From positions 10,049-74,048 of IMG/VR virus record IMGVR_UViG_3300045999_007288: DNA of 64,000 nucleotides; one strand, written 5' to 3'. This document shows positions 4,797 to 23,351 of the stretch, piece by piece. The notes beneath the pieces were generated by a model, which was given only the letters and a program-made list of their open reading frames with translations, did no database searches and was not told the origin of the DNA. The position numbers were made by a program, and so were the translations under genes. The stretch is from a virus. Positions within the stretch are counted from its first letter, which is position 1. Every line of letters begins with the position of its first letter.

Positions 4797-6467
4797 TCAG
4801 TATTTAGTGTCATAATACTGTCTGAGCCATGCCCACTCGTAGGATAACATTAGCTTATCATACTCGCCGTTTACTGTGTCGTAGTACTCTATAGCATCTT
4901 GAGCTCCAAGAATACTCCATTCACCGTAATGCCCGTTGCCCACAGTTAACCATTTTTTAAGTCTGAACTCAGTTTCAATACTGGGTTGCGTAATACTAAA
5001 ATGTTTTAACTTAATAACTTCGCGAAATGCTGTACGCCATGTGGTCCAAGCATCTTGGTCATAATGGGCAATGCCACTTAAAATGGGTACTACTTCGTGA
5101 GCTTTACTTAAAGTAAAATCTAATCCACTGTTCACAGTTTCCAGTACCAAACGTTTATTGTAAGCAATCATTGCTTGATGTCCGTAGACCAATCCATTTA
5201 CTGGATTTCGAGCATGAAAAATGTAGTGTTTTGGTTCTTGAAAGTAATCGGGTTGCCAAGACCAATCAAAATTTAGATCAATTTCTAATTTAGCAAACAC
5301 TGCAAAAAACCACGGCGTATCACTACGTTCAGCTGCGGCTTTGTATGCGGCCATACGGCCGTTTACATTTTGGACACGTTTGATTGTATTACTGAACTTT
5401 AGTACAGGAAATCCAGAGTCTTCCTGGTCCAAAACTTTACACAAATGATCATACCAACGTTCTGCTTCTGGCTCGCCATTACTAATATAGATGATGTCTA
5501 AACAGTCTTCTGTGCGTATAGATTCGCCCCTTTTTTCGACGTTTACGTAAGGATAATCGTAGATTTGCGTGCGTAAATGTGTCTTAATGTCTCGGGGTAC
5601 TACACAAATACTGTTGCTGTCTGTAAAACTTTCCACAGTCCTGTCTTTTTCAGTCCATAAGCAAATTTCACTGTTAAGTAAAATACTGGGCCGATTTGAA
5701 AATGCAGCGTAGGGGAATTTGAAGTCGTAATTACGAATCTCATCTACTAGATTATCATGATCATAGTACACTTTTGGACAGGCATATCTATAGACCTTTT
5801 GATCTTCGCAGTAGTTTATAACATTAAACCAATCTAATAATTCCAAATCAACCATTTGCTTTTTGAATGATTCCACATGAATATAAAAAGTGTCTCCGCG
5901 TTTTTGATTACCACTGGGGAAGCAATGAATCATTTCTTCTTGCCATTGAGCAGGGTGCCAAGTAAAGTCGAAATCTTTATAGTCACAGACACTGCTAATA
6001 ACCCATACATATTCGGTGGTAGCTAAATTTACTATACGTTTTAGTACGTTTAAATGGTCTGATACGTATCTAGTAGATTTAATCGAAGGATGTGTTTCTT
6101 TAAGAGCAGCAAATTGTGGTTGACTTTCGGGATTCATGAAATCCATATAGAAAATATCAGTGCTACCGGTGCGAGGAACACAGTAATCATTTATAGGACA
6201 ATGCCAGTGCCACTGATGCTCTTTTGTATTTTTTGGTATTAAATATGTGCCGCCGTTTTGTTGCCATTGGCTAGGCCAAACGTGTGTATGTTCCGCTTCA
6301 TAACTGATAGGTCTCCAATAAAAGTCAAAGTTGCTATAGTTATTATGCCCGTCTATGTACCAAAAATATTCAGTTCGGCATAGCGCATCAGCTTCTTCAA
6401 GAGATGTCGCAGGTCGTTCAAAGGCAAACAAGTTAGGCTTAGGGCCTTTGTAAAATACATCAAACAT
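4797..6467 (-). CDS. Glycosyltransferase-like protein with ~3 degenerate GT-A-like repeats
   Basis: Repeated units (CRTEYFWYID..FDFYWRP; ATTEYVWVIS..FDFTWHP; SDTPWFFAVF..FDWSWQP). C-terminal unit is paralogous to 20033..20959 (ARNPVNGLVYG vs ARNHINGLMYG; WRTAFREVIK vs WRAGFREGVK). Confidence 0.6.
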   Translation of the reverse strand: MFDVFYKGPKPNLFAFERPATSLEEADALCRTEYFWYIDGHNNYSNFDFYWRPISYEAEHTHVWPSQWQQNGGTYLIPKNTKEHQWHWHCPINDYCVPRTGSTDIFYMDFMNPESQPQFAALKETHPSIKSTRYVSDHLNVLKRIVNLATTEYVWVISSVCDYKDFDFTWHPAQWQEEMIHCFPSGNQKRGDTFYIHVESFKKQMVDLELLDWFNVINYCEDQKVYRYACPKVYYDHDNLVDEIRNYDFKFPYAAFSNRPSILLNSEICLWTEKDRTVESFTDSNSICVVPRDIKTHLRTQIYDYPYVNVEKRGESIRTEDCLDIIYISNGEPEAERWYDHLCKVLDQEDSGFPVLKFSNTIKRVQNVNGRMAAYKAAAERSDTPWFFAVFAKLEIDLNFDWSWQPDYFQEPKHYIFHARNPVNGLVYGHQAMIAYNKRLVLETVNSGLDFTLSKAHEVVPILSGIAHYDQDAWTTWRTAFREVIKLKHFSITQPSIETEFRLKKWLTVGNGHYGEWSILGAQDAIEYYDTVNGEYDKLMLSYEWAWLRQYYDTKY

Positions 6468-6906
6468 CGAGTTGTTCTACTATAACTTTACATTTGTTTA
6501 AAAATTCAACACCAGATGTATCACGATAAGCTTGCCCAAAATAAACTTTTTTTATTCCGCTTTGATAAATCAGTTTAGAGCATTCTATGCATGGTGCATG
6601 AGTAATAAACATTGTTGCTCCGTCTCCGCTTTCGCTACTTCGTGCTAATTTACTGATGGCATTCGATTCGGCGTGGAGCACTTCTGGTTTTGTTTTTAAT
6701 TCGTAGTCGCCTGTTTTATCCCAAACTTTATCTTCACAGTTGTTATCCCAACCTGCAGGCATGCCGTTATAGCCAATGCTGATAATTCTATCATCTTTAA
6801 CTACAATAGCACCAACATGCAGTCGTCGAGCATGACTGAGTTCAGCAAATATTTTTGCAGTCTGCATGTATGCTTGGATTAATTTTTTCTTCATTTTCTT
6901 AACCAA
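6460..6906 (-). CDS. cd: dCMP deaminase
   Basis: VGAIVVKD.RIISIGYNG, Zn motifs HAESNAI and PCIEC. True start is likely MKKKL at 6894. Confidence 0.95.
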   Translation of the reverse strand: MVKKMKKKLIQAYMQTAKIFAELSHARRLHVGAIVVKDDRIISIGYNGMPAGWDNNCEDKVWDKTGDYELKTKPEVLHAESNAISKLARSSESGDGATMFITHAPCIECSKLIYQSGIKKVYFGQAYRDTSGVEFLNKCKVIVEQLDV

Positions 6907-7586
6907 GAAATATTATCCCAAATATCGCCATTGGGATTAAATCTATTAGAAACTCTATTATATAAATCGATATCAGGTAACAAATATTCCATTATTTTTT
7001 CATTGGGAGAAGAATTAAATTTTTCTTTTATATCTGCTTCGAGTCTCTTTTTTAAACTAGAGGAAATATTTGACTCCTGATCAGTTGCCCAATAACTATC
7101 TATATAAATTTTATATTTTTCTAAGAGTTTTGCAATTGCCCATTTAACCCCGTCATGATTTTTTACAGGTTCCAGTGGAATCCAATCAATTTGATTACAA
7201 AATTCTTCGTAATAGTTATAAACATATCCGTATGAATGTATATCTAAGATAGGGGTACTCAAAACAAAATTTTGCAATTCAACATTTTTATAATATTCAG
7301 TTATTAGATTTTTTTGAAATAACCATTCTGCTATTGCTTTATACCGTCTAGTCAAAGGATCCGACATCAAAGTAAAAACACGACTGTTGTCCCAATTAAT
7401 TTCTGAAAACGGTATTTGTCTCCATCGACAGTTTTGATTAAAAGTGGCCGTCAAAAAACTGGATCCACATTTTAAAGTTGCAATACATGTCAATACCTCG
7501 CAGGTATACACTGCTGCTGTAGCCCCAGGCCTTCTTTCAAATTTATTGAATTCTTCAACTTCTAGAATATAAGGAGTTATGTCCAT
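6891..7586 (-). CDS. Sulfotransferase-like protein (Sulfotransfer_2-type, divergent)
   Basis: KCGSSF resembles the 5'-PSB PAPS loop. VFTLMSDPLTRRYKA resembles the 3'-PB motif (F..VRDP..R..S). C-terminal DIDLY. Lies near the APS kinase. Confidence 0.5.
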   Translation of the reverse strand: MDITPYILEVEEFNKFERRPGATAAVYTCEVLTCIATLKCGSSFLTATFNQNCRWRQIPFSEINWDNSRVFTLMSDPLTRRYKAIAEWLFQKNLITEYYKNVELQNFVLSTPILDIHSYGYVYNYYEEFCNQIDWIPLEPVKNHDGVKWAIAKLLEKYKIYIDSYWATDQESNISSSLKKRLEADIKEKFNSSPNEKIMEYLLPDIDLYNRVSNRFNPNGDIWDNISWLRK

Positions 7587-7595
7587 GATTTACAA

Positions 7596-7624
7596 ATTAT
7601 AATTAATTGACATCAAATTGTCAA
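7596..7624 (-). promoter_or_regulatory. Perfect-consensus sigma70-type promoter for the sulfotransferase-like gene
   Basis: Minus strand TTGACA (7624-7619), 17 nt spacer, TATAAT (7601-7596). ATG is at 7586. Overlaps the inverted repeat AATTGACA-N6-TGTCAATT (7605-7626). Confidence 0.85.
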
Positions 7625-7651
7625 TTATTAATTAATTGATAATAAAATATT

Positions 7652-7876
7652 TCAGTCTTTGTCTGTTACTATAACTGCAACTCGATCAACCCAGATCATT
7701 CTACCACGGCATGCTATATTCCATTTGGTTTCGCCGTGTTCGTGTGTACATTCTGTAAAAGTTTCCCCAACAATTCGAACATCTTTAGCTAAGTGTTCTA
7801 CTCCGTTTTCAAATACACGCCAGACCAATTCACTGCCATTATGTTTAGTATTAAATCTGACGTGATATTTGTTCAT
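7652..7876 (-). CDS. Hypothetical phage protein
   Basis: ATGA-coupled to the upstream kinase gene. Natural-looking beta-rich sequence. Confidence 0.7.
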   Translation of the reverse strand: MNKYHVRFNTKHNGSELVWRVFENGVEHLAKDVRIVGETFTECTHEHGETKWNIACRGRMIWVDRVAVIVTDKD

Positions 7877-8664
7877 TTAAGTCCTAGTTCTTTTCTGATT
7901 TTAGTAGCAGAAATATCAGTGATAGATTCATCAAATGTTTCTTCACCAGCAGAATATCCCACACCACGACCCCATCCAATATGCACTATGTTAGGAACTA
8001 CTTGTATTTCATATTGTCCTTGATACAATGGGTCTAAATCTCGACGGATAAATGATTTCACTTTTTCTACTTCGAAGGGATTGGACCCTTGCCAGCCTTG
8101 TACATCACGGACTTGAATTATAACTTGGCCAGTGCGCTGTAGCAGTCTTTCAAATAATGCCCTGTGACCATCGTGCCAAGGTTGCCAACGCCCTAACATT
8201 TGTACCGTTTCTTTTTTCCAATCAAATACAGGCCGTCGACGATTGTCAATAATGTGTTCAGCGATAAAATCTGCCCACTTAGCGGCATTCTGTTCATTAA
8301 TTCGAAAATCATAAACTTCGGGCTCTACAAACATTTTATTAGTATCAGCGTAACGACCTTCGCGTATAGTATCCACCCATACAGTCCAATCTGCTTTAAA
8401 ATTGTTACGCATTTCTACTAATGGTGCAACAAAATCACATAGTGCATAATCTGTATGACATGACATCGACAAATCAAACATACGTTTACTTTGGCGAATT
8501 CTGCCAGCTTCGCTGAAATCCCAATCGTCAAATTGTTTTCTTACTTCGTCTGCGTTAAACCAAGTAACTGTTTTGCCATTGTCTTCCAATAACTTTTTTA
8601 ATTCTGTTGCTAAGTAGGTTTTTCCTGCTCCAGGCAAGCCCATAATTAAAATTCGTTGTGTCAT
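7873..8664 (-). CDS. cysC: Adenylyl-sulfate-kinase-like P-loop domain fused to an HxGH nucleotidyltransferase domain
   Basis: N-terminal GLPGAGKT, NADEVR, DFSEAGR, CDFVAP (CysC-like). C-terminal GRWQPWHDGH and ISATKIR (cytidylyltransferase-like superfamily). Confidence 0.8.
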   Translation of the reverse strand: MTQRILIMGLPGAGKTYLATELKKLLEDNGKTVTWFNADEVRKQFDDWDFSEAGRIRQSKRMFDLSMSCHTDYALCDFVAPLVEMRNNFKADWTVWVDTIREGRYADTNKMFVEPEVYDFRINEQNAAKWADFIAEHIIDNRRRPVFDWKKETVQMLGRWQPWHDGHRALFERLLQRTGQVIIQVRDVQGWQGSNPFEVEKVKSFIRRDLDPLYQGQYEIQVVPNIVHIGWGRGVGYSAGEETFDESITDISATKIRKELGLK

Positions 8665-10142
8665 GATAGTACCTTTACTCCATATAATTTTTCAAATCTA
8701 TCAGCGTCCTTACGATCATTGACCATAGGTTCGCCTCGAATGTTCAGACTAGTATTTAATAGCATAGGGCAGCCTGTGACAATAAACCATTTCTCTAATA
8801 GTTCTCGTATACCTGACCCGTCCTTTGGTACAGTCTGAACACGACTAGTTCCGTCATGATGCACAATAGCAGGAAATAAGTCAGGATGCCTGCAAAGAGC
8901 GACTGATTGCATATACCTACTGCTACTGAAGCCACTGGGCATGCCAAAATACTCGTTGGCAAACTCTTCCAAAATAACTGGTGCGAAGGGTCTGAATTTT
9001 TGTCTACGTTTAATTTCATTTACTCGATCTTTTATATCTGGTCCCCGGGGATCGGCCAACAAGCTACGATTACCTAATGCTCTGGGGCCGAATTCAGCAC
9101 GGCCACTGGCAATGCCAACAATACGATTAGCAATAAGCTCATCTAACGCAGCATTAGTAGGGTAAGGTCCGGGAATATTGTGACCTAAGAAAGCATCGCG
9201 CCAATTAATCCTACCACCATAAGCCAGTGCAGCAGCACCCAAACTAGAACCTGCATCGCCAGGATTGGGCATTATCCATATATTATCAAAATAAGGACCT
9301 ATTCTGCCGTTGGCCACACAATTAAGAGCAACCCCGCCCATATAAACTAAATTTTTGCTCCAGTTAAAGTCTTTTGCTCTACGCATAACATTTAGTACAA
9401 GATCTTCTGTTAAGTCTTGTGCGCTGGCTGCAATATCCATATCTCCAACATAAGACAAATACTTTTCTTCTATGCCAGTATGAAGATTTTCTTTAAATTT
9501 AATTTCCCACTCATTATGTAAAAATTTAGACTTAAACAAATCAGTGAACGCAGGCGCACCATATGCTGCCATACCCATTAAAATGTATTCTTCTTCATTG
9601 GGTTTAAGTCCAACACGTTCTGTCATTGCACTGTAAAACAATCCTATACTATGCGGATATTTTTGGCGCCATAATCTTTTATAAACGGCTTTTCCTTGAA
9701 CATATTCTGCTGCCCAAATACTTATTGTGTCCCATTCCCCAATGGCGTCTATCACAACCACTGTGGCTTTATTAAATGAGCTTGTTTGAAACCCTGCGGC
9801 TGCATGACATAGGTGATGATTATGGGTTGAAATCTTACCTGGAAATTTAGAAAATTCTTTGCCTATTTGCCTAGTAAGAATCTGTCGGGCAGTAAGTTTA
9901 TTCCATTCAAGGCCCTGACCACTGTACAGTTGTCTTAACTGTTTATTCCATGGTCGTTCATAGTAAGCAACATGATCAATCCTATAATCAATTATTTCTT
10001 TGATTATACCAGGACTTAAATTTGGATCATTCTTAATTTTACTATAGCGTTCGCTGTGGCCCGCATATAATATATTTCCATAATTACCAATGACACTTAT
10101 TGCAGCGTCATGAAATCCTGCAGATATTCCTAAAATATTCAT
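8661..10142 (-). CDS. Carbamoyltransferase, NodU/CmcH/TobZ family
   Basis: ILGISAGFHDAA, ERYSKIK, HHLCHAA, IDAIGE, GGVALN, DAGSSLGAA, EFGPRALGNRS, FRPFAP, LLNTSLN. Confidence 0.95.
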   Translation of the reverse strand: MNILGISAGFHDAAISVIGNYGNILYAGHSERYSKIKNDPNLSPGIIKEIIDYRIDHVAYYERPWNKQLRQLYSGQGLEWNKLTARQILTRQIGKEFSKFPGKISTHNHHLCHAAAGFQTSSFNKATVVVIDAIGEWDTISIWAAEYVQGKAVYKRLWRQKYPHSIGLFYSAMTERVGLKPNEEEYILMGMAAYGAPAFTDLFKSKFLHNEWEIKFKENLHTGIEEKYLSYVGDMDIAASAQDLTEDLVLNVMRRAKDFNWSKNLVYMGGVALNCVANGRIGPYFDNIWIMPNPGDAGSSLGAAALAYGGRINWRDAFLGHNIPGPYPTNAALDELIANRIVGIASGRAEFGPRALGNRSLLADPRGPDIKDRVNEIKRRQKFRPFAPVILEEFANEYFGMPSGFSSSRYMQSVALCRHPDLFPAIVHHDGTSRVQTVPKDGSGIRELLEKWFIVTGCPMLLNTSLNIRGEPMVNDRKDADRFEKLYGVKVLS

Positions 10143-10240
10143 TTGTATATAAAAGGATCTTGCTTTCGTAATTCTTTGAGTCTGCGACGATAAGTGATTT
10201 CTAATTTAATTCTGTAGTATAAATTTTTAAGCCATGTCAT
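10139..10240 (-). CDS. Small 33-aa basic peptide MTWLKNLYYRIKLEITYRRRLKELRKQDPFIYK (not in ORF track)
   Basis: Translated by hand. It fills the gap between two genes, and its TGA overlaps the carbamoyltransferase ATG (ATGA). Confidence 0.8.
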   Translation of the reverse strand: MTWLKNLYYRIKLEITYRRRLKELRKQDPFIYK

Positions 10241-10244
10241 GATA

Positions 10245-11345
10245 TTATTTATTGAGCAAACTACTGCTGTAATCGTAACCAGGTTTTAATCTTTCAATTT
10301 GTTGATCATAGTAGTCCTTATCTGACCAAGTATAAGAATATACAGAGCTCAAAATGTTTCCTGACCCATCATCGCATTGAATCGAATATATGTCTAAATA
10401 ACACGATAGTATCGGCCAAACTTCACTGTATTTGATCGTCCCAAAACTTCTTTGTAGATCAACTTGACCCACTGAATGGTATCCGAAGTTGTATTGATTG
10501 TCTTCGGGGTCGAATCCGTTTCGTTCGAGCCATGATTTAAACCCAGACATTTCTTTGGTGTACCAAGGATGCGGCCCATTATAACATACATCCTGTGCCC
10601 ATTCGATGTCAAATTCCCCGCTATAGTAACGTAGATGTGTAATAGCATCACAGGTAGCCTTGTCAATGTCAATGCCTTTTTCGTCTCGATACACTTCATA
10701 TAACGTTTTACCGATTTGTGTCCAATGCAGATATACTTCCCCAAATTTTCGATCATATCTGGATTCGTCAAAAGTAGTTTTATGTATTGCTGGAAATTCG
10801 TATCGTGCGGCGTTCAAAAATGTAGTAATTTGACTAGGTCTGACCCATTCTGGTAATGTTACTTTTTTACGTTGACTTAACATTAAACTCTCTGCTTCAT
10901 GACATAAATTATTCAATTGTCTAATAGCAAATTTAGTTGTATAATCTGCCCGTTTATAATAATCACTGAGTCCCCATACAGTTCCTTGTAAAATCTCAAA
11001 ATGATTGTGCAATTTGTTCATTAAATCCTGATTAGGATTTAATGTTTTAGGATCCCGTAGAGTAAAAGGGTAAAAGTTTTCTTCTATTTTATATTCATCC
11101 CGAAAGAAATCATTTATTACATTCTTAACCCAATATAGTTCTTTACAAATATATTCTAAATCTCTTTGACTGTCGGGGAATCCTAAAAAGCAAAAGTTCT
11201 TTTCTAGATATTTGTGTTGCTGTACGATTTCTTGTAGTGCTGTAAACCATTGCTGAGCCATTTCGTGCTCGTAGACATCGATAATATAATCTAATGTTTT
11301 TGTTTTATCTAACGGATTGCGTAGTGTTACTATTACTTTATTCAA
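10245..11345 (-). CDS. Hypothetical protein within the modification operon
   Basis: 366-aa ORF overlapping the upstream radical SAM stop. His/Glu clusters (LHNHFE, LCHEAE) may bind metal. Confidence 0.8.
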   Translation of the reverse strand: MNKVIVTLRNPLDKTKTLDYIIDVYEHEMAQQWFTALQEIVQQHKYLEKNFCFLGFPDSQRDLEYICKELYWVKNVINDFFRDEYKIEENFYPFTLRDPKTLNPNQDLMNKLHNHFEILQGTVWGLSDYYKRADYTTKFAIRQLNNLCHEAESLMLSQRKKVTLPEWVRPSQITTFLNAARYEFPAIHKTTFDESRYDRKFGEVYLHWTQIGKTLYEVYRDEKGIDIDKATCDAITHLRYYSGEFDIEWAQDVCYNGPHPWYTKEMSGFKSWLERNGFDPEDNQYNFGYHSVGQVDLQRSFGTIKYSEVWPILSCYLDIYSIQCDDGSGNILSSVYSYTWSDKDYYDQQIERLKPGYDYSSSLLNK

Positions 11346-13825: not shown

Positions 13826-15159
13826 TTATTTTTTAACTCGCTTAATTCAGAAAATGTATTCCAAAAGTTTTCTCCCCTGAGATTATCAATTAAATTAATT
13901 TCTTGTTTAAATTTATCCCAGTGCTGTGAGCCGTTGGTGGCCATTAGAAAATTAATAGCACTCTTAAATCCAGTTGTTGCACGTTTTAATGGGTCTTGTG
14001 GTTCTAACCATTCAATATGACGCTCGTATGCTGGTTTAATTACTTGCTCTTTAAATTCTTGAGAGAATATGTCAACTCTATACCATTCGGGACTTTGGCA
14101 AATATTAACGTTAAAGTCCTTGGGTTTAATAAATCCTAAATCAACCCACTCCTTATGAAAATCCAATACGTGAAGAACGTTCATTGCACTAATAGTAGAT
14201 GCTATATAAAAATCTACGTGCGGCACTTCTTCTAACATGCGTTCACGATTACGAACTGTTTGTTTCCAGTCTGTGCCTTTTCTCATTAATTCTGCTCTAG
14301 TCCCGCTGGCATCCAGACTAGCACCTACACCCACTGTTCTAAAGTGTTTCCAGTATTCAAATACGTGTTTGTCTTTGAATGCTAATTCGCTAAAGTTTGT
14401 ATTGTACTGGATACATACGTCTGTTCGACCGGCTTCAATGAGTTTTTCTAATAGATAATAGTGTTCCTTCATAATCAAAGGTTCGCCGCCTGCAAAATAG
14501 ACTTGTTCCAAGTAGGGAATATGTTCTTCCATTTGTGCAATCATATAATCTTCGTCACCGGCAGCATATTCAATTCTGGCCAAATCTTTGCCGTTTACGT
14601 CAGGCACTCTATTGAATAATTTGACATGATCATTATACCAGTTACTGCTAAAAACAGGGCCGCACGTTCTGCAACGAAAATTACACAGATTACTAAATCT
14701 AACGTCCCAATATCTAATCTTAAATTCTGGATGAGTTCCATCTGGCAATGTTTTATCTACGTCTGCAATGTTATGTCCGTAACTACGATTAGCGTCATAG
14801 CGCATACTAAAGAATCCGTTTTCTTCTTGTTCATAACATTTGGTGCATTGTTTGACTGGCTGATCTGCCATCATTAAACGTCTGATCTCTTTATATCCTT
14901 CTTGATTCCAAACTTCTTGCATTGAATTCTTTTTTAAATTCCCAATTGGATGAAAATATTCTGCAAAACAACAAGGATACACACGACCATCCGGGTACGC
15001 ATGTTGATGAACCCAGGGCAACATACAAAATGACTTACTATTAGTTAATCTACTGATCTGTGTTTCTGTAAGGGAGTTTGAATCTATAAACAGTGGCTTT
15101 CGACTATTGTAGTCATAGCCACGTTTATAAAATCTATCAGTTTTTTTGTCTTCGCTCAT
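13822..15159 (-). CDS. Radical SAM protein with N-terminal twitch domain
   Basis: CMLPW..YPCC..CTKCY, CNFRCRTC, AGGEPL, QYNTN. Confidence 0.9.
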   Translation of the reverse strand: MSEDKKTDRFYKRGYDYNSRKPLFIDSNSLTETQISRLTNSKSFCMLPWVHQHAYPDGRVYPCCFAEYFHPIGNLKKNSMQEVWNQEGYKEIRRLMMADQPVKQCTKCYEQEENGFFSMRYDANRSYGHNIADVDKTLPDGTHPEFKIRYWDVRFSNLCNFRCRTCGPVFSSNWYNDHVKLFNRVPDVNGKDLARIEYAAGDEDYMIAQMEEHIPYLEQVYFAGGEPLIMKEHYYLLEKLIEAGRTDVCIQYNTNFSELAFKDKHVFEYWKHFRTVGVGASLDASGTRAELMRKGTDWKQTVRNRERMLEEVPHVDFYIASTISAMNVLHVLDFHKEWVDLGFIKPKDFNVNICQSPEWYRVDIFSQEFKEQVIKPAYERHIEWLEPQDPLKRATTGFKSAINFLMATNGSQHWDKFKQEINLIDNLRGENFWNTFSELSELKNK

Positions 15160-16505
15160 AGTGTATTATACCAATCTGCTAATGCAGGAAATGTTTTGCA
15201 GAAGTCTTTTCCTCTGCGTTGATCGTATTGTGTGTAAAATTGTTTAAAATCGTTTTGTAATTTTGGCAATTCAAAAGAATCGCTGTGGGGTGTCTTAACA
15301 ACATCCAAATAATCTATTAGACGCAGTACATGATTTATTTCGTGCTCGTGTAAGTAGTTATGCCCTTTATGGCGAACAACAAAATCAATTAGCCGATTAC
15401 GATATTTTGTTTTAATGTCGTCTGGCAATATCAATGGACTTTGAAAACTAGGGAAACGTAAAATGTTTAATGTAAAATTAGGAAAGTCTCTTCCAAAGTC
15501 TTTCTTTAAATTAACCATTGTATCTAAGAAATCGGGTAATGTGTCTAAACACAATGCATTGATCGTACACATCACATGCAATCTATAAAACTTTTTACTT
15601 TGTGTAAGTTTTATAACATGTTCTAACCATAGATTATAATTCAGTCCATCGCGAATATATTCTGCTTGATCATATTCGCTTTCGTTGCTAGTATATAAAT
15701 CTATTTCAAGTCCATCTACACTGTCAATTAGTCTATCTATATCAACTTGATATCCTAAATTACTGTTGATAGCAAGTCGAGTTTTACTACGGCCTTTATT
15801 TGCTTTAAACCAATCTAATAATTTCCAAGTTTCTGCACTCATCAGAGGTTCTCCACCAGTAATGCGTAATTCGTCTAATGTTTTATGGAGATCGCTTTCC
15901 CACCATTTATGGAATGCTTCAACGTATGGATTAGATTCGCCAAATTTATAAAGTTGTGAACTATCATGGGTGTGCGTAAAGTGATTTCTACCATCACTAA
16001 CAAGATTATTATAGGGCCCGTTACGTTTAATATCGTTGACCCATGTACTACTAAAAGCAGGATTACAATAACTACAAGCAAACTGACAAGTTCTATCAAA
16101 CGCGATTTCAAGAGTTTTAAGATCGAAATCTTCTCGAGCTGGTGTTCTATATGCGCGGGCCAAGTCTTCATCATTGTAAATCACAGTTTTGTATACACGA
16201 TCACTTACTGCATCTCGGCCCATGTCTTCAATCTTCCAGCAATACTCACAACCAGATGGACGCTCACCTTTTTGCATTTGTTCGCGTTCCATCTTTTTCT
16301 TTTGAGTATTGTGTAATGCCTTAGGATTGTTGATCACATCATCTATTTCGACTTTATGAGGCAATGGATGATGACAGCTAGTGGTCATACCGCTGCCTAA
16401 CCATATAGTAGCATTATACCACTTAGCTCCGCAAAAAGATTTTGATTTAATATCGATTACTCTACGTTTGTAATCTAAGTCTGTTTCATTGTTTAGTCTT
16501 GGCAT
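15156..16505 (-). CDS. Radical SAM protein with N-terminal twitch domain
   Basis: CGAKW..SCHHP..CEYCW, CQFACSYC, TGGEPL, NSN. Confidence 0.9.
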   Translation of the reverse strand: MPRLNNETDLDYKRRVIDIKSKSFCGAKWYNATIWLGSGMTTSCHHPLPHKVEIDDVINNPKALHNTQKKKMEREQMQKGERPSGCEYCWKIEDMGRDAVSDRVYKTVIYNDEDLARAYRTPAREDFDLKTLEIAFDRTCQFACSYCNPAFSSTWVNDIKRNGPYNNLVSDGRNHFTHTHDSSQLYKFGESNPYVEAFHKWWESDLHKTLDELRITGGEPLMSAETWKLLDWFKANKGRSKTRLAINSNLGYQVDIDRLIDSVDGLEIDLYTSNESEYDQAEYIRDGLNYNLWLEHVIKLTQSKKFYRLHVMCTINALCLDTLPDFLDTMVNLKKDFGRDFPNFTLNILRFPSFQSPLILPDDIKTKYRNRLIDFVVRHKGHNYLHEHEINHVLRLIDYLDVVKTPHSDSFELPKLQNDFKQFYTQYDQRRGKDFCKTFPALADWYNTL

Positions 16506-17526
16506 AGTTGTTAAATTTAGTTATAAAATCATTTATTAGTTGTTTATCCTCGCCGGGTGGTTGCGTGGATATCATTACATTCCTATTGTGTCTACAAATA
16601 TCTTCGGCTTCATTTAAAAATTCTTCTAAATTAGAATTGCAAAGAAATTCTATCACATCTACTATTCGATTTAATCGTTTATCGTTGTCGTCTATTAGAT
16701 CAAACGATTCGTCTATTAGATGACCAAACGTTTTAAATCCTTGATTATGTAAATCTTTATAGAATCCATAGTTTGCCGCTACTACAAATGGGTGTCCAAT
16801 TTTAAGTGGCTTGTAAATTTTTTCTGTTCTGAAGCTATAGGGCAAATAAAAATTTGTTTCTGTTACAACACTGAAATAAGAATCTTCAAAAATATTTGCA
16901 AATATTTGCCCGTCAGGCCAGTCGTTTAATTTATATTTTCCGTTTACTACATTATCACTGTTGACTTGAAATTGGTAGTCTTTGGGCAAAAATTTATTGT
17001 CGTAGAGTGCAGACCATAAACTTCGTTCTAACAAATCTTTTTTATTTAATTTTTCTATCAGTAATGAACGATGAGATCTTTCTATCCCATTTAAAAAATT
17101 AAACAAAAAAGTTTTATTCCTTTTTAAAAAAATTTGATCAATTATCTTCGAATCTCTTTGTTCGAGCTCAGTTGTTGTACGTCCTAAGATATACCTAAAT
17201 ATGTCTACTGTTATATGTGCTATATTCGAGGGCAAATCTCCCGACGACACGATAAACGGTAGACGCACAAAATCATTCCATCCTAATGCGTTTAATGTAT
17301 CTAATACTGTATTGGTACCTTCGTGTAGCATACTTAGTATAAACAAATTTTTGCTGTCCACAGAAATAATATTTTTTTTAATAATATTTCCTGTTAATAA
17401 AACAATACCATTGTCTGAAATTAAACTTTCTACTGTATCGTGCTCCACTACATCAAAATAATCAGGATACCAATTAAAAAATTCTAAATTGTCGTTTTTT
17501 AACGAGTTAATTTTAATCTTTTGCAT
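16486..17526 (-). CDS. Glycosyltransferase-like protein (GT10/GT47-like C-terminal region)
   Basis: FNFLNG..RSHR, SYFSVVTET, RTEKIYKPL..GHPF and GFKTF..IDESFD resemble the nucleotide-sugar-binding half of fucosyltransferase-like GT-B proteins. Confidence 0.55.
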   Translation of the reverse strand: MQKIKINSLKNDNLEFFNWYPDYFDVVEHDTVESLISDNGIVLLTGNIIKKNIISVDSKNLFILSMLHEGTNTVLDTLNALGWNDFVRLPFIVSSGDLPSNIAHITVDIFRYILGRTTTELEQRDSKIIDQIFLKRNKTFLFNFLNGIERSHRSLLIEKLNKKDLLERSLWSALYDNKFLPKDYQFQVNSDNVVNGKYKLNDWPDGQIFANIFEDSYFSVVTETNFYLPYSFRTEKIYKPLKIGHPFVVAANYGFYKDLHNQGFKTFGHLIDESFDLIDDNDKRLNRIVDVIEFLCNSNLEEFLNEAEDICRHNRNVMISTQPPGEDKQLINDFITKFNNYAKTKQ

Positions 17527-18658
17527 TTAAAAGATCCTTAACTTTGACAGGAAGAGTTATATTTTTTCTATCTTCCCATTGTTTTAAAAAATGTAAAAAT
17601 TCTGAAAATAAAGTTTTATTAAATTTAGTTGAAGACAATATACTTAACACAACATCAACATTCTTTATATTTTTATTATCTAACAACGTTAATAGCACAG
17701 TCTCTGCTTGTTTTTTAATGTTATCCGGAGTTGCTTCAATGCTTTGAATTCTGGGATGTTGACCATATGACAGTGCCCAATGAAAGTTATCTTTATATTT
17801 TTCTATTCTGGGCAGTATTACACCAGATGAAAAGTTTTCGATATCACAGAGAGTTAAATTAGTCATCAAACTCAATATATTAATTTTGATATTTTCTTCA
17901 CTACGTTCTAATAGATAGTCCAAATTTTTCAAAAATAAATCATAATCAAGTCCATACCTAACAAATTCTGATATTTCCTTGCAAGAATCTAAACTGACAT
18001 TTATTACAATGTATTTAAATTTATTTCTATTAGATAGTAGTTTATCAATTGATGTTTTATCGACCATTAAATTTGAAGTTACATCTAAAATTCCTTTATG
18101 GTCTATTGTATCTAAGATATTAAAAAAATTTTTATTTATTAATGGCTCGCCACCTATTATTCTCAAAGTTTCAAATTTTAGAGTGTTTAACAATTTTAAA
18201 TTTTCGACCACTAATTGTTTATTTTTAATATCAACACTGTAGATATGTCGATCTGTAAACAATTGATATTTTTGATTTTGTACGTCCTTTTCCCATTGAC
18301 TGCTAAACTTTGGATTACAATATATGCATTGCATATTGCAAGCATTGCCAACATTAATTTCAATTACCTTAGGCGATTTATTATTTTTATATTCATCGAA
18401 TGTTGATACTTCAAATTTTTCTAAAAACTGAGTTCTGAGGCTGGTGCCGTTTGTTTTTTCAGAATTCCAACAGTAAGAACAACTGGAATCTTGCACATTG
18501 TTTAATAAATTTTGTTTTTGATGATCGATAATTTTGTTGTAATCGTCGACAAATTTTTCCGGTCTTGCTTTACAACAACCATACACATAATTATAACTAG
18601 TATTAATGACTAATTCGTCCCATTTAGCCGGACAAAAAGTGTTAGGTAGTTGTTGCAT
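17513..18658 (-). CDS. Radical SAM protein with N-terminal twitch domain (divergent, AT-rich)
   Basis: CPAKW..GCC..CSYCW, CNMQCIYC, IGGEPL, TSN. Confidence 0.88.
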   Translation of the reverse strand: MQQLPNTFCPAKWDELVINTSYNYVYGCCKARPEKFVDDYNKIIDHQKQNLLNNVQDSSCSYCWNSEKTNGTSLRTQFLEKFEVSTFDEYKNNKSPKVIEINVGNACNMQCIYCNPKFSSQWEKDVQNQKYQLFTDRHIYSVDIKNKQLVVENLKLLNTLKFETLRIIGGEPLINKNFFNILDTIDHKGILDVTSNLMVDKTSIDKLLSNRNKFKYIVINVSLDSCKEISEFVRYGLDYDLFLKNLDYLLERSEENIKINILSLMTNLTLCDIENFSSGVILPRIEKYKDNFHWALSYGQHPRIQSIEATPDNIKKQAETVLLTLLDNKNIKNVDVVLSILSSTKFNKTLFSEFLHFLKQWEDRKNITLPVKVKDLLNAKD

Positions 18659-20039
18659 AATATTTGCATTCCTTCCAAAAATCTACCATTTCTGGAAATG
18701 CCAAAATAAAGTTAGTGCCGCGGCGGCGATCATGTTCATTGAAAAATTTATAAAAATTTGCTTTTTGCATTTTAACATAATCAGGATCTAATTTGCTACC
18801 TTCTCTCATCCAATCAATGACTCTTTGTAAACGTTGAACTTCATAATCTTTGAAACCGTGAAACGGAGTCTCAGGTTGCTCCATTTTTGTAATCATAAAA
18901 CTCCATGACATTTCTAAGTTATCTATATAACTTTCTGGTAATAGTTGTAAGCTTTGCCATTCTGGTTTACGAAGAATCGGAGTATCAAACCACACACGCT
19001 GATACGTTTTACTGTGTATTTGTCTGAGTCCTAATATACAACCTAGTAAATTTTGAAGGCCGGCCACATTTAAATTATTCATAGTAATTATAAATGTTAA
19101 ACTACTACGATTGGGCACTTCATATAAAAATCTGTTGACGTTATCCCAAAATCTTTCAAAATTTAATCCATGTCTGATATATTCGGCCTGTAGAAAAGTG
19201 GCATCTATACTAACATACTGCATGAAATGCTCAATTTTTTTATCTTCATTGCTGCACAATCGTTTCACATAATCTAAGTATTTTTCAAACAATGCAGGGT
19301 CAACGCTGAAATTAGAAGTCACATTTAAATGTAGTTTTGGATTAGGATTTTCCAATACATAATCAAATACACGATATGTATTCTTATCCATGAGAGGCTC
19401 TCCGCCAGTCATTCTGAAATGTTCCAATTCTGGATATAGCGTAGGCCACCAAGACCAGAACGCATCAACATAAGGATTATCTTCCCTTGCAGGAATAACT
19501 TTTCTTTCTCCAGTAAAATGACTGGGGTCGTTGTGCAGTGGGCTTGTGGGAAAAGCGCCATTACGTTCTACTTCACTGGCCCAACTACTAGAGTATTGGG
19601 GGCTGCAATAACTGCAAGATAAGTTGCAAGCATTATTGAAATTGACTTCTACGTAGGAAGGAAGCACATCCTCGTCTCCAGTGGAATTAACTATTTTTTC
19701 AAAATCTTTTGTTGCCCACGGCTCTCCACTACGATAATGTCGATCGCTTAAATTGCCCAAATCTTCTTGTGTCCAACAATAACTACATTCTTGTGGGCGC
19801 TCATTATGCAGCATAATCTTACGCTGTTCTTTTTTGTAAGGAGTGTTATGCAATGCACCAGGATTATCTTTTAATAGTGTTGAATCTATTTTATGTAAAG
19901 GTGGGTGATAGCAACTGTTATTAAGTCCCGTCGGTAAATGTAAGCTAACTTGTTTCCATTTGGCCAAACAAAGTGCAGGACCTAATTTAGATTTTGCGTC
20001 TTCCGCAGAATTTAAAAATACGCTTTTAGACATTACCAA
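18642..20039 (-). CDS. Radical SAM protein with N-terminal twitch domain
   Basis: CLAKW..SCYHP..CSYCW, CNLSCSYC, TGGEPL, TSN. Closest paralog is 15156..16505. Confidence 0.9.
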   Translation of the reverse strand: MVMSKSVFLNSAEDAKSKLGPALCLAKWKQVSLHLPTGLNNSCYHPPLHKIDSTLLKDNPGALHNTPYKKEQRKIMLHNERPQECSYCWTQEDLGNLSDRHYRSGEPWATKDFEKIVNSTGDEDVLPSYVEVNFNNACNLSCSYCSPQYSSSWASEVERNGAFPTSPLHNDPSHFTGERKVIPAREDNPYVDAFWSWWPTLYPELEHFRMTGGEPLMDKNTYRVFDYVLENPNPKLHLNVTSNFSVDPALFEKYLDYVKRLCSNEDKKIEHFMQYVSIDATFLQAEYIRHGLNFERFWDNVNRFLYEVPNRSSLTFIITMNNLNVAGLQNLLGCILGLRQIHSKTYQRVWFDTPILRKPEWQSLQLLPESYIDNLEMSWSFMITKMEQPETPFHGFKDYEVQRLQRVIDWMREGSKLDPDYVKMQKANFYKFFNEHDRRRGTNFILAFPEMVDFWKECKYYATTT

Positions 20040-20959
20040 CCCTCAACTCGTCGAATAACATCTAGTTCAGTCATTGTTGTTCCCATGTTACGATGCACTG
20101 CTTTATAATGATGTTTAAAAAATGCACTCTGGTCTGGATTCATATCTACTATCGGCAATCCCAATCGTGTACGCAATGTTTGTCCAATGTTTTCACAGGC
20201 AGGTTCTTCGTCTTTGCTAAAGCTGTTCCAAAGATATGCGAGATGGTCAAAATCTTGCACTTGTTTATAATCCCAGTCCCTTAACATAGTCATGTACGTA
20301 CCTAGCCGAGCACCGTATATAGCCCACCAACCATTTTCTACATCTTGCCCTACGCTCTGCCAGATGCATAAATGATCGTAATTACGGGCATGAACTTTTT
20401 GTTCAAACTCTTGTAAGCTAGGTTTCTTACCACGATTCAAACACATTTTAACGCCTTCACGAAAGCCTGCTCGCCAAGCTTGAAAAGGTGTTGCATTGGG
20501 AAAGGTAGTACTATAGCAATCATGCATGGGAATATACTTTGGATCAAAGCAAAACTCTACCACAGTCTCATCTCTGCCATCAGTGGCTTCGTGTGTTCGC
20601 ATATTGTTGACGAACTCTTTGGTCCAGCAACTTATTCCGCCATTGCCGTACATCAATCCATTGATATGATTACGAGCTTTCCACCTAAATACACAGTCGT
20701 GATTGTTATCATCAAATTTAAGTTGAAGATTAAAAAATTCAGCATCTGGTATATTGTCCCCATCTATTAGCACGAACCTATCAGTGTCACTGGCCGCAGC
20801 AGCGGCTTTGTGTGCAGCATCACTGCCTTTAATACCGTCCACATGTTTAGCCCACGGAATTAAATTTTGAATCTTAATCCAAAATTCTTCTTTTTTCGGT
20901 TCGTCGTAGGTTAAAAATATGCAATCGAGGTCAGCAATATCAACGATTTTTGTAGTCAT
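20033..20959 (-). CDS. GT-A-fold glycosyltransferase-like protein
   Basis: DCIFLTYDEP, G..AAHKAAA, FVLIDGDN (DxD), YGNGG. Confidence 0.65.
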   Translation of the reverse strand: MTTKIVDIADLDCIFLTYDEPKKEEFWIKIQNLIPWAKHVDGIKGSDAAHKAAAAASDTDRFVLIDGDNIPDAEFFNLQLKFDDNNHDCVFRWKARNHINGLMYGNGGISCWTKEFVNNMRTHEATDGRDETVVEFCFDPKYIPMHDCYSTTFPNATPFQAWRAGFREGVKMCLNRGKKPSLQEFEQKVHARNYDHLCIWQSVGQDVENGWWAIYGARLGTYMTMLRDWDYKQVQDFDHLAYLWNSFSKDEEPACENIGQTLRTRLGLPIVDMNPDQSAFFKHHYKAVHRNMGTTMTELDVIRRVEGW

Positions 20960-21365
20960 AGTGTTCTACATCTTTATAAGTTTCACCATCTTCCAAAATT
21001 ATGCCTGGAACATTTTTTACTGTTTTAAATCCTGTCTGACTTTTTTCAAGTTGCGGTGTTTGCGCGGCATTGTCTTTTTTAACTGCAATTTTATTATTAT
21101 ATACCGTATACTTGTGTAATTCTGCATATACACTCTTATAAGTATCCTCATCTACTATGATATAATCGCCGGTGAGGCCATACATTTCAGCATCTTTTAC
21201 TGTAGGCGATGTTGCTATAATATTGCCAGACGCATCATAATAAATTCGATATTCGTATTCAATTATCGAAGGTTTATCTATTAGACCCAACTCGTCTAAT
21301 TGTCTAATTATTTCTTCAAGAGTGGTGTCTTCATTAACTGTTATGGTAGGTTCGTTCGTATTCAT
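20940..21365 (-). CDS. Hypothetical protein
   Basis: Overlaps both neighbours. YRIYYDASGNII..DYIIVDEDTY is loosely like tail-fibre-assembly protein N-termini. Confidence 0.7.
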   Translation of the reverse strand: MNTNEPTITVNEDTTLEEIIRQLDELGLIDKPSIIEYEYRIYYDASGNIIATSPTVKDAEMYGLTGDYIIVDEDTYKSVYAELHKYTVYNNKIAVKKDNAAQTPQLEKSQTGFKTVKNVPGIILEDGETYKDVEHYDYKNR

Positions 21366-22182
21366 GTATTAATTCCTCTGTTACATATGATTTATCATAA
21401 TAATGCACTGGGCTGTATTGATTCAGATTATGAATTTTAATCATATGGTTATCTCTATCATGCAGCACTATGTCTTGCCAAGACTGATCTGTATTGCCCC
21501 AGCCGTTGATACCAGGTTTCAAATGTACGAAATTAATGAAATCCATGGTTGGTATGGTACACAATTCAACCCCTATAGTTTTTGCTGTTAAAGCATACAG
21601 TACATCAGTGCTAGGCGTGTCTTCTCGACAATTTTTTAGAACATTATCTCTAAAATATTCCCAATTTCTTAAAATTCGTTGGGCTGTTAAAAAGAAATCA
21701 TTGGCTACTTTGCTATATCTAAAATACATTAAACCATTGTAAATGTCTGGTAACTCGTTGTCATCAAAAAATTTTCTATAAAGTCTAGTTGTAGCTAGTT
21801 CTTGCCTATATGTTTTGCATCCTGTACTTAATACAACGTCCCGCAGTCTAAACGCATTCCACCAATGATCGATATTTCTGGTGAATAACAAATCGCTTTC
21901 TAATTTAATAGTTTCTTTAAAAGGACTCAGTGAAAAAACTTGGTATTCATTGGATAGTTTCCATGTACTGTCTTTATCATTTTCGTCATAGGGTATTTCG
22001 ATTATATGATTAAATACTTTTTTATGTTTATCTGTGATTTGCTCGATGGTATTTTTATCGCAAATCACTGCATACTTGGCAGTTGGATGCAGGCTTTTTA
22101 CATTCATTGCTTGGCAATACGCAAGGGATAGATAATCCACCTTATCTGTATTTTGTGCAAATGTTAGAAACCCTTTAGTCAT
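21334..22182 (-). CDS. GT8-like glycosyltransferase
   Basis: GFLTFAQN..Y, LSPFKETIKLESDLL, YNGLMYF. Paralog of the adjacent 279-aa gene. Confidence 0.65.
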   Translation of the reverse strand: MTKGFLTFAQNTDKVDYLSLAYCQAMNVKSLHPTAKYAVICDKNTIEQITDKHKKVFNHIIEIPYDENDKDSTWKLSNEYQVFSLSPFKETIKLESDLLFTRNIDHWWNAFRLRDVVLSTGCKTYRQELATTRLYRKFFDDNELPDIYNGLMYFRYSKVANDFFLTAQRILRNWEYFRDNVLKNCREDTPSTDVLYALTAKTIGVELCTIPTMDFINFVHLKPGINGWGNTDQSWQDIVLHDRDNHMIKIHNLNQYSPVHYYDKSYVTEELIHEYERTYHNS

Positions 22183-23014
22183 TGCAGATCCTTTCTACAA
22201 AATTTTTGAATTGATCCGACAGTAGATAATTCTTATCCATGATATGTAAATTTTGTCTGCTTATCACATCTGCTCGGCTATCATACTTGACCGTTAAAAA
22301 TTTATTTTTAAGATCAATTGCCTCGATGTTATCTTCTATAGTTAACATTGGCCATGGTATACTTTGTTCGGGAGTAAGGGTGTGCCCATTTAAAATAATA
22401 TTGGCCATACTAAATGCAAAATCATTTCTATAGTTTGTTTCTCTAATAGAAAATAAACTTCTATAATACCCATAGTTTCTTTGTATGCGTCCTACTAAAT
22501 CAAAAAATAATTTGGCTCTTAGAGTTTTTCGAAATAACACAACTGTGGCCCACACCATAGGCAAACTTGCAGGTCCCATTTCATCTATGTTAAGTGCTTG
22601 AGGAGTCTGCATGTTATACATTAACCTATAATCAAAAGGTTGATCTAACAATTTTAACAAGCTAGTGTCCAGCATCAAATAATCTGTGTCTATTAGAATA
22701 GTTTCATCATAGGGGCTGAAGTCGAATGCTCGATATCTGTCAAAATTTTTCCATTCGTATACTTGTTGATCCTTAGAAAATCTAACATTGCCAGTTTTAC
22801 TGTCAACACGAATTACTTGATCATAATCAAATTTTAATTCAGCATCTACGTCAGTGACCAGAGTCACAGGAAGTCCCAATGTACGATTGATCAATCTGCT
22901 GGTTTGGTCTGCTATTTCGGTATACTTAACTTTTTGACTATTAAAAGCAAATACCAGTACACCTTTAGATTTTTCTAATTCGCTTGAGCTCTTCATGTTG
23001 TTGATGCCATTCAT
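22175..23014 (-). CDS. GT8-like glycosyltransferase
   Basis: GVLVFAFN..Y, FSPYDETILIDTDYL (DxD), WATVVLF, RNDFA. Confidence 0.7.
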   Translation of the reverse strand: MNGINNMKSSSELEKSKGVLVFAFNSQKVKYTEIADQTSRLINRTLGLPVTLVTDVDAELKFDYDQVIRVDSKTGNVRFSKDQQVYEWKNFDRYRAFDFSPYDETILIDTDYLMLDTSLLKLLDQPFDYRLMYNMQTPQALNIDEMGPASLPMVWATVVLFRKTLRAKLFFDLVGRIQRNYGYYRSLFSIRETNYRNDFAFSMANIILNGHTLTPEQSIPWPMLTIEDNIEAIDLKNKFLTVKYDSRADVISRQNLHIMDKNYLLSDQFKNFVERICND

Positions 23015-23291
23015 TCATTACACTTTGATAATGTTGTCGAGCCTTTGTTAAAAACGATTGTTTATCTAATTTAATCGGATTCAAATAGATATCTTCTATG
23101 TACAAGATATCATCGGGCCACGTTGCTACAAATGCCAATAATTCCGGATTTATTTTGAACAATCCGTTTTCATAGGGCATATGCAATTCTGTTAAAATAC
23201 GCTCGCGCAAGACTCTTTTATTGATTTGATAATCTGTAGCCAGTTTTACCTGATTGACTATTTCTTCGACAGTGCTGTTCATATTGGGCAT
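22965..23291 (-). CDS. Hypothetical protein, first gene of the modification operon
   Basis: 108-aa ORF directly after a sigma70-type promoter. Helical C-terminus loosely like fibre-associated DUF4376 proteins. Confidence 0.7.
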   Translation of the reverse strand: MPNMNSTVEEIVNQVKLATDYQINKRVLRERILTELHMPYENGLFKINPELLAFVATWPDDILYIEDIYLNPIKLDKQSFLTKARQHYQSVMNEWHQQHEELKRIRKI

Positions 23292-23297
23292 AAAATA

Positions 23298-23340: not shown

Positions 23341-23351
23341 GTCTTGAAAAA

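Follow-up and report, generated by a model that had tools for sequence, protein, structure and literature searches.

A predicted early sugar-building and sugar-editing gene block with six radical SAM enzymes in a lake-water jumbo myophage

The DNA considered here is a stretch of 64,000 nucleotides (nt), the window, which covers bases 10049-74048 of a 74-kb IMG/VR virus contig with an estimated completeness of 21%. Directly behind its tail fibre genes lies a block of co-oriented genes in which six radical S-adenosylmethionine (SAM) enzymes are accompanied by glycosyltransferase (GT)-like proteins and a carbamoyltransferase. With a confidence that falls a little short of even, we read this block as a soluble early pathway of a jumbo myophage of about 355 kb from lake water, which builds and edits a sugar and for which the fibre proteins are the most likely acceptor. 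The evidence that carries this reading is observed directly and consists of gene families, sequence motifs, promoters, synteny and associations that recur across lineages.

A jumbo myophage is the source of the contig, whose baseplate wedge protein is 34-38% identical to the counterparts in Atu_ph07, PA5oct and SCTP-2, and two complete relatives (G001 and G002) measure 354 and 357 kb. Near-identical DNA is present in 24 lake-water metagenome runs, with no RNA run among those listed. A megablast search of the block DNA against isolate phages gave no match.

The gene block

The preliminary description of this DNA had counted about 21 co-oriented, mostly overlapping genes, and the same layout was recovered here, with 20 minus-strand genes within 4797-23291 and a 21st at 3927-4796 (lettered from A at the 5' end to T). 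Most junctions between these genes overlap, by 4-50 nt, and the only real gaps are at 23292-23351 and 7587-7651. No transmembrane segment was found in any of the cluster proteins, flippase, polymerase and polyprenyl-phosphate transferase genes are absent from the block, and its enzymes appear to be cytoplasmic and soluble.

This protein content bears on the possibility that the block modifies a lipopolysaccharide, capsule or S-layer glycan of the host early in infection, against superinfection or the adsorption of progeny. Many phages do encode O-antigen-modifying GTs, PHROGs classes the NodU-like carbamoyltransferases of cyanophages among auxiliary or host-takeover genes, and the early promoters described below would fit such a role. 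Nevertheless, a set of cytoplasmic enzymes that lacks every membrane-spanning and lipid-linked function named above makes an envelope target very improbable.

Radical SAM enzymes of the N_Twi family

Six genes of the block encode radical SAM enzymes that match the NCBIfam model NF033640 (N_Twi_rSAM), for which the curated cut-off is 170 bits:

18642-20039, minus strand: F, N_Twi radical SAM enzyme of 465 amino acids (aa), NF033640 at 318 bits
17513-18658, minus strand: G, variable N_Twi radical SAM enzyme of 381 aa, 195 bits, in a minority of relatives only
15156-16505, minus strand: I, N_Twi radical SAM enzyme of 449 aa, 290 bits
13822-15159, minus strand: J, N_Twi radical SAM enzyme of 445 aa, 399 bits
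12620-13825, minus strand: K, N_Twi radical SAM enzyme of 401 aa, 333 bits
11338-12627, minus strand: L, N_Twi radical SAM enzyme of 429 aa, 302 bits

All six pass the cut-off, at 195-399 bits, and a scan of the whole contig returned the same six. Invariant among them are four N-terminal cysteines (C45, C63, C105 and C108), the three cysteines of the CxxxCxxC motif (C159, C163 and C166) and a GGEP motif (G224-G225-E226-P227). In J, K and L a SPASM Pfam match lies N-terminal of PF04055, so that the twitch (auxiliary 4Fe-4S) domain precedes the radical SAM core. The earlier claim of six CxxxCxxC twitch radical SAM enzymes therefore holds, with every motif kept. Pairwise identity among the six amounts to 18-30%, which, together with the intact cluster motifs, marks them as old, intact paralogues.

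The family to which they belong is large. J has more than 6000 metagenomic homologues (E<=1e-10), and the N_Twi family comprises about 22,500 representatives (50% clustering, E<=1e-3), many of which are tandem fusions. Fusions to GT2 or GNAT domains occur in single members, and fusions to Sel1 repeats or a subtilase-like domain in some. Among isolate phages, tblastn with J matched only K566/K567, RsoM2USA and one marine virus. Literature searches on glycosylation by phage radical SAM enzymes turned up no study of such a system.

Outside the block, two further radical SAM genes, at 55510-57039 and 57903-59066 on the plus strand, lie beside an SbcC/Rad50-like gene at 53716-55488. One of the pair is a B12-binding class-B methyltransferase-like protein (best match to the PhpK family, 87 bits) and the other is SPASM-maturase-like. 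Added to the six of the block, they raise the number of radical SAM genes in the 74 kb of this phage to at least 8.

Linkage in relatives and across lineages

In the synteny survey that the preliminary description had suggested, the genes stay linked: about 40 related IMG/VR contigs, at 45-97% protein identity, share the core order A-B-C-(D)-E-F-I-J-K-L-M-N-O right after the fibre genes, while the presence of G, H and additional radical SAM genes among the core genes differs from contig to contig. Two convergent sugar genes adjoin the block, and in the complete relatives G001 and G002 they are followed by ThyA and dihydrofolate reductase (DHFR):

1875-3934, plus strand: GalE-like extended short-chain dehydrogenase/reductase (SDR) and DegT/PseC-type sugar aminotransferase, convergent with the block, assigned by family matches and motifs

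In the SDR, the GalE-type SSSMVYG and YxxxK motifs are present and the Asp-Glu pair of 4,6-dehydratases is missing.

Contigs from metagenome-assembled genomes (MAGs) named Legionellales, Betaproteobacteria, Verrucomicrobia, Rickettsiales, Flavobacterium and Haliscomenobacter also carry the block, in the same order and beside fibre-gene homologues; these are probably jumbo-phage contigs that were binned into bacterial MAGs.

Outside this phage family, N_Twi genes keep company with other sugar enzymes. In the Ralstonia phage RsoM2USA orthologues of I (51% identity) and N (47%) stand two genes apart, a DUF6071 gene separating them; the paper on this phage does not discuss these genes. The Vibrio phage K566 has four N_Twi radical SAM genes interleaved with a GT8 gene above the Pfam cut-off and a weak GT4, and one MAG contig combines two radical SAM genes with DUF6071, a carbamoyltransferase, a flavin adenine dinucleotide-type (FAD) oxidoreductase, DegT and an S-like gene. 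On a Bacteriovoracaceae contig that also encodes Obg, an NTP_transferase-HAD gene is accompanied by about eight N_Twi genes, and on a Chitinophagales contig an N_Twi gene adjoins Sulfotransfer_4 and GDSL genes. Together with the GT2 and GNAT fusions, these neighbourhoods support, at the level of gene context, a carbohydrate substrate for the N_Twi radical SAM enzymes.

The same associations bear on a second alternative, in which the radical SAM enzymes would modify a ribosomal peptide or protein (the fibres, the small proteins A, D or P, or a 33-aa peptide), as in the RiPPs (peptides made on the ribosome and then modified post-translationally), and the GTs and the carbamoyltransferase would decorate the product. 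SPASM and twitch radical SAM enzymes are typically peptide maturases, among solved structures the family profile matches the RiPP cyclopropyl synthase 8VPO best (36 bits), the Sel1 and subtilase-like fusions could be read in this sense, and the operon does contain conserved small open reading frames (ORFs). However, neither a RiPP recognition element domain nor a repeated core-peptide motif was seen, thioether chemistry is unlikely because the fibre proteins U and V hold 1 and 0 cysteines, respectively, and across lineages it is associations with nucleoside diphosphate-sugar and GT genes that dominate. A peptide product seems distinctly improbable on this balance.

Glycosyltransferase-like proteins

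Five proteins of the block show GT-like features or kinship with a protein that does, and a sixth, M, is a conserved protein of the core:

22175-23014, minus strand: B, 279 aa, retaining-type GT-like protein with a GT-A fold (GT6/GT8-like), from an AlphaFold 2 (AF2) model, Foldseek, D109-x-D111 and H257
21334-22182, minus strand: C, 282 aa, diverged paralogue of B by blastp, with E-S-D in place of D-T-D
20033-20959, minus strand: E, 308 aa, probably GT-A/GT2-like, with a LIDGDN motif, judged from column identity and a weak hidden Markov model (HMM) match
16486-17526, minus strand: H, 346 aa, variable multi-copy cassette with the motif TETNF...RTEKxxKP...HPF
10245-11345, minus strand: M, 366 aa, conserved, model with a mean predicted local distance difference test (pLDDT) of 89.4 and no clear known fold
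4797-6467, minus strand: S, 556 aa, with an E-like C-terminal domain (hhalign) and repeats

The AF2 model of B (pLDDT 88.4) matches, with a Foldseek probability of 1.0 and TM-scores of 0.40-0.46, the GT6 alpha-1,3-galactosyltransferase, the ABO transferases (GTA/GTB), the GT8 enzyme glycogenin and GlyE. D109-T-D111 and H257 are conserved in B, and the equivalents of D111, D198 and H257 are invariant in both B and C, although the two proteins share only 23% identity (blastp, E 5e-6). Neither protein matched Pfam GT8 (PF01501) or another CAZy-family HMM in the Pfam (E<=10) and NCBIfam scans. The fold and motifs thus suggest, from the model, that B and C work like GT-A enzymes that are not filed in GT8.

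E is the most conserved of the proteins without an assigned family, with a mean column identity of 78%. Its description as a GT-A protein draws on the LIDGDN motif and on weak GT2 signals, namely a Glyco_tranf_2_3 match (E 0.083) at the DGD motif and a neighbouring Atlas cluster automatically named GT2-like, but no significant family or structure match accompanies them. S, previously taken for a repeat GT protein, is indeed related to E through its C-terminal domain (hhalign 97%, E 1.6e-11) and does have N-terminal repeats of the motif region, at residues 32-77 and 151-197 with 41% identity. The DGD motif is nevertheless missing in S, where the DXD is degenerate, and its sequence suggests that S is probably either non-catalytic or a binding partner.

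In H, the motif resembles the donor-binding motifs of GT10 and GT47, with E223, T224, T234, E235, K236, K239 and P240 invariant, and the copy number and position of the gene differ between relatives. The resemblance is what remains of its earlier GT10/47-like label, as H has no Pfam, NCBIfam or PDB match. The GT-like proteins of the preliminary description are thus confirmed in part. More widely, PDB profile searches with B, C, E, M, H and Q returned nothing significant, and permissive Pfam (E<=10) and NCBIfam scans of the block's unassigned proteins yielded noise besides the weak GT2 match of E. The model of M had no Foldseek match, and its best hit in a wide VIA-align 2 search (Z about 8) is marginal, pointing at best to a cyclophilin-like barrel with an inserted 4-helix bundle. 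Alignment of the B/C profile by hhalign with E, and with the neighbours without an assigned family in RsoM2USA and K566, indicated no relation.

Carbamoyltransferase, kinase fusion and dCMP deaminase

The 3' half of the block adds a second group of predicted enzymes:

10139-10240, minus strand: basic peptide of 33 aa with the C-terminus DPFIYK; its stop codon overlaps the ATG of N
8661-10142, minus strand: N, 493 aa, NodU/CmcH/TobZ-type O-carbamoyltransferase, with Carbam_trans_N and Carbam_trans_C
7873-8664, minus strand: O, 263 aa, fusion of an adenosine 5'-phosphosulfate (APS)-kinase-like P-loop kinase and an HxGH/ISxT nucleotidyltransferase by domain matches; membership in the pathway uncertain
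6891-7586, minus strand: Q, 231 aa, possible sulfotransferase, from KCGSS and DPLTRRY motifs and an Atlas lead
6460-6906, minus strand: R, deoxycytidylate (dCMP) deaminase, within the second transcription unit (PF00383, 1.6e-23; phrog_174, 3e-52)

The assignment of a carbamoyltransferase with a small peptide is well founded. N matches both Pfam domains (Carbam_trans_N, 137 bits, 1e-39; Carbam_trans_C, 158 bits, 1e-46), its best solved relatives over a two-domain alignment are NovN, GdmN and TobZ, with values of 1e-34 to 1e-52 to TobZ and NovN, and the 33-aa ORF is conserved in at least 14 relatives, with a nearly invariant C-terminal half.

The proposed route to sulfation fared less well. In O, the architecture of a P-loop kinase followed by an HxGH domain stands, but the APS kinase match (PF01583, 38 bits) covers only profile positions 5-94 of 152, and the apsK model gives 28.8 bits against a cut-off of 138.7. 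No ATP sulfurylase was found in O, whose C-terminal 110 or so residues match only generic HxGH cytidylyl/adenylyltransferases (NMNAT-like), which leaves its reading as a source of 3'-phosphoadenosine 5'-phosphosulfate (PAPS) unsupported. As for Q, its Atlas feature score of 0.95 to a neighbouring cluster, 31% of whose members carry Sulfotransfer_2, and its conserved PAPS-loop-like residues, with S42, P77, R80 and R81 invariant, agree with the sulfotransferase-like label, but it matches no sulfotransferase HMM or PDB entry. Q as a sulfotransferase and O as its PAPS source are thus leads only.

Homologues of O elsewhere suggest a different occupation. In the Stenotrophomonas phage Bhz60 (5565-7391) the gene lies between a NADAR-domain gene and a gene for a DNA methyltransferase, near MazG. 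The neighbours of O in this and other Sanovirus phages hint at a role of the fusion in nucleotide or nicotinamide adenine dinucleotide (NAD) metabolism, and both O and the dCMP deaminase may serve early nucleotide metabolism and just happen to lie in the block's transcription units.

The deaminase, which the preliminary description had overlooked, is relevant to a further alternative, that is, hypermodification of the phage DNA, with bases glycosylated, carbamoylated or otherwise derivatised against restriction. In the MetaGPA study, a phage NodU-type carbamoyltransferase was proven to turn 5-hydroxymethylcytosine (5hmC) into 5-carbamoyloxymethyl-C, in company with thymidylate synthase (TS) and dCMP-deaminase domains, the hallmark neighbour being a TS homologue with Asp177 (PMC8670742). 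The block shares with that system a NodU/TobZ-family enzyme, a dCMP deaminase and a nearby TS-family gene, with ThyA and DHFR within 7 kb, and early expression would match that of the T4 DNA glucosyltransferases. In contrast to the MetaGPA system, the sole TS-family gene, here and in the two complete relatives, is a canonical ThyA (about 350 bits) of the deoxyuridylate type, with PCH (His147) and VPFNIAS (Asn177), which lies beside DHFR and lacks the Asp177 of the dCMP-hydroxymethylase type, and the carbamoyltransferase has GTs and radical SAM enzymes as its neighbours. The cross-lineage partners of the N_Twi enzymes are likewise sugar enzymes and not DNA enzymes. A search with Tet/JBP profiles gave no match, but neither did it give one in any control genome. 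A single ThyA with Asn177, in G001 and G002 as well, leaves the known hydroxymethyl route, and with it the 5hmC-carbamoyl route, unsupported. DNA had been named before as an alternative target; with the known hydroxymethyl-pyrimidine route weakened and other DNA chemistry still conceivable, we regard it as improbable.

Promoters and expression timing

Each of the two gaps in the block contains a perfect sigma70-type promoter, and the first also contains a hairpin:

23311-23340, minus strand: promoter P1, TTGACA-N18-TATAAT, matching the sigma70 consensus at 12/12 positions, about 20 nt 5' of gene A
7596-7624, minus strand: promoter P2, TTGACA-N17-TATAAT, perfect consensus, 5' of Q
23297-23329, minus strand: terminator-like element, a perfect hairpin of 15 bp and then a U-rich run, after fibre gene U and overlapping the -10 box of P1

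The sigma70-type promoter that had been placed at 23340 is thus confirmed as a full consensus match. Perfect TTGACA-N17/18-TATAAT sites occur twice in the 64 kb, where 0.11 would be expected, both times on the coding strand. A near-consensus site also precedes the homologue of A by 50-60 nt in 18 of 26 relatives, against a background of 0.038 per 130 nt, and the sequence of its spacer differs. The -35 box of P2 lies within a palindrome, TTGACA-ATTTGA-TGTCAA, which could be an operator.

The hairpin folds with a dG of -15.3 kcal/mol (z -3.4). We infer that it is the terminator of the late fibre operon, which would insulate the block from late transcripts; a transcript started at P1 would include no more of the hairpin than the 3' arm. 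Late TAAATA motifs are found 10-20 nt 5' of structural genes and are missing from the gaps of the block. In the window the T4 late consensus TATAAATA occurs less often than expected, and the shorter TAAATA is the motif that stands ahead of the structural genes. Gene T, at the far end of the block, has a TAAATA motif right before its ATG.

Taken together, the sigma70 promoters, the hairpin and the distribution of TAAATA suggest that the block is early, dependent on the host polymerase and not co-transcribed with the fibres. As judged from these signals, it looks like an early unit in two transcription units, separate from the fibre operon. Because it has its own early promoters and is separated by the hairpin, its adjacency to the fibre genes is a matter of synteny throughout the family and not of co-expression.

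Proposed pathway and acceptor

From these genes a course of reactions can be proposed, in which the chemistry, the order of the steps and the acceptor are all inferred. The GT-A enzymes B, C and E, together with the variable H cassettes, would transfer sugars to the acceptor. Each of the six N_Twi enzymes may remove the hydrogen of one particular C-H bond in a sugar and thereby oxidise, epimerise, deoxygenate or otherwise rework it. A keto-sugar made in this way by a radical SAM enzyme could be aminated by the adjacent DegT aminotransferase, by analogy with butirosin synthesis, where BtrN makes the keto-sugar for the aminotransferase BtrS. Since the neighbouring SDR lacks the Asp-Glu pair of 4,6-dehydratases, the keto-sugar for the aminotransferase may indeed come from a radical SAM dehydrogenase. 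N and its 33-aa partner peptide are predicted to O-carbamoylate a hydroxyl via carbamoyl-adenosine monophosphate, and Q may add sulfate. The Ser/Thr-rich fibre proteins would be glycosylated in the cytoplasm prior to assembly, on the pattern of virion glycosylation in mycobacteriophages.

Fibre proteins suit such a role in their composition, with a Ser+Thr content of 32.8% in U and 21% in V. In the glycosylation of serine-rich repeat proteins (SRRPs) by GT8 enzymes, the transferases are likewise cytoplasmic and soluble, and the presence of GlyE, a GT8 enzyme that glycosylates a serine-rich protein, among the structural matches of B supports a fibre acceptor.

The likeness to antibiotic biosynthesis allows for another product of the same enzymes. 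The block could be a phage-borne gene cluster for a free carbamoylated amino-sugar or aminoglycoside-, aminocyclitol- or nucleoside-like compound, made early for host shutdown, to block competing phages or as a counter-defence. A twitch radical SAM enzyme, DegT, a TobZ/NovN-type enzyme, GTs and a kinase mirror the aminoglycoside and aminocoumarin clusters, N has natural-product enzymes as its nearest solved relatives, and BlsE, viperin, BtrN and MoaA are among the weak PDB matches of the radical SAM profile. Early promoters, insulation from the late genes and uniformly soluble proteins would also be expected of such a cluster, and the phages S-SCSM2R (PMC12801897) and CP220/CPt10 (PMC2853527) hold unexplained sets of radical SAM, aminotransferase and amidinotransferase genes. 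On the other hand, no scaffold-forming enzyme (such as 2-deoxy-scyllo-inosose synthase), exporter or self-resistance gene was found, three to five GT-like genes with swappable GT cassettes resemble serotype-style glycan variation, and the location of the block immediately after the fibre genes is conserved. A free metabolite is therefore unlikely, albeit by no means negligible.

Several findings weigh against a single sugar pathway directed at the fibres. The early promoters and the hairpin weaken the argument from co-expression for a fibre target, and the match to 8VPO, as the best among solved structures, keeps a peptide substrate for the N_Twi enzymes in play. Literature searches on the N_Twi family gave no study and no member with a known reaction, and E, H and Q are without a significant family or structure match. 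Full-length homologues of O are found in Sanovirus siphophages that have neither GT nor radical SAM genes, which leaves room for doubt that the block forms one assembly line, and the embedded dCMP deaminase means that the stretch may mix functions. Finally, synteny within one family is weak functional evidence, which is why linkage was also examined outside it.

What the preliminary description had proposed, a multi-enzyme glycan pathway aimed at the fibres, thus survives in part. Linkage in about 40 relatives and sugar-enzyme partners in other lineages speak for the pathway, while O makes a single assembly line doubtful; the fibre proteins are still the most likely acceptor, although their adjacency no longer counts as co-expression.

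Remaining genes of the block and its surroundings

Four further proteins complete the block:

22965-23291, minus strand: A, 108 aa, first gene of the operon, no family match, in most relatives at 42-97% identity
20940-21365, minus strand: D, 141 aa, fast-evolving, no family match, 30-87% identity and missing in some relatives
7652-7876, minus strand: P, 74 aa, no family match, in a subset of relatives
3927-4796, minus strand: T, 289 aa, directly 3' of S without a gap, in some relatives only (82% in L041, 44% in G001)

A single ORF of 4673 aa (26789-40810, minus strand) separates the baseplate wedge gene from the small fibre genes. With a Ser+Thr content of 17%, 10% Asn and only four cysteines, its product is presumably a giant fibre or baseplate-attached protein. 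Upstream of the window, at contig bases 4425-7249 and 5' of DHFR, an AAA ATPase gene and a DUF2201 metallopeptidase/VWA gene form a pair that shows 68-70% identity in the complete relatives.

Relation to known systems and significance

The closest parallels are each partial. The block's radical SAM enzymes have the same N-terminal four-cysteine domain followed by CxxxCxxC as the rest of the NF033640 family, here as six paralogues in one phage operon. The enzyme classes known from butirosin, tobramycin and novobiocin synthesis (BtrN, DegT-type aminotransferase, TobZ and NovN) occur together here, but the twitch domain is C-terminal in BtrN and N-terminal in the block's enzymes, and, unlike the butirosin-type clusters, the block has no aminocyclitol scaffold enzyme and is set in a phage behind tail-fibre genes. 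The SRRP systems with the GT8 enzymes GlyE and GlyD, and virion glycosylation in mycobacteriophages, which Freeman et al. reportedly described in 2023, likewise place soluble GT-A/GT8-like enzymes beside Ser/Thr-rich structural proteins. However, these systems are without radical SAM, carbamoyl or amino-sugar steps. Several radical SAM genes of unexplained role are present in an interchangeable module of the Campylobacter phages CP220/CPt10 (PMC2853527) and in the radical SAM/aminotransferase/amidinotransferase set of the cyanophage S-SCSM2R, whose role is equally unexplained (PMC12801897); unlike those of the block, they are not detectably of the N_Twi type (tblastn with J). What is new here is the early-promoter and insulator architecture, the test on Asn177 of ThyA, the evidence from other lineages and from fusions, and the doubt cast on O.

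A very common group of lake phages conserves the block, which has echoes in marine, soil and bacterial genomes. To our knowledge, phage-encoded glycosylation has been recognised only in simple forms, namely the glucosylation of T4 DNA and the virion glycans of mycobacteriophages. Six radical SAM enzymes combined with carbamoylation and amino-sugar steps would, if the proposal is correct, represent a new level of chemical complexity in a virus. For the N_Twi family, the block offers a compact and defined context in which to find a reaction, and, were the product a free metabolite, made from host-type promoters within minutes of the onset of infection, this would be the first reaction type for a family of about 22,500 representatives and a new radical chemistry. 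In the biology of the phage, the product could affect adsorption, evasion of immunity or defence, or host takeover.

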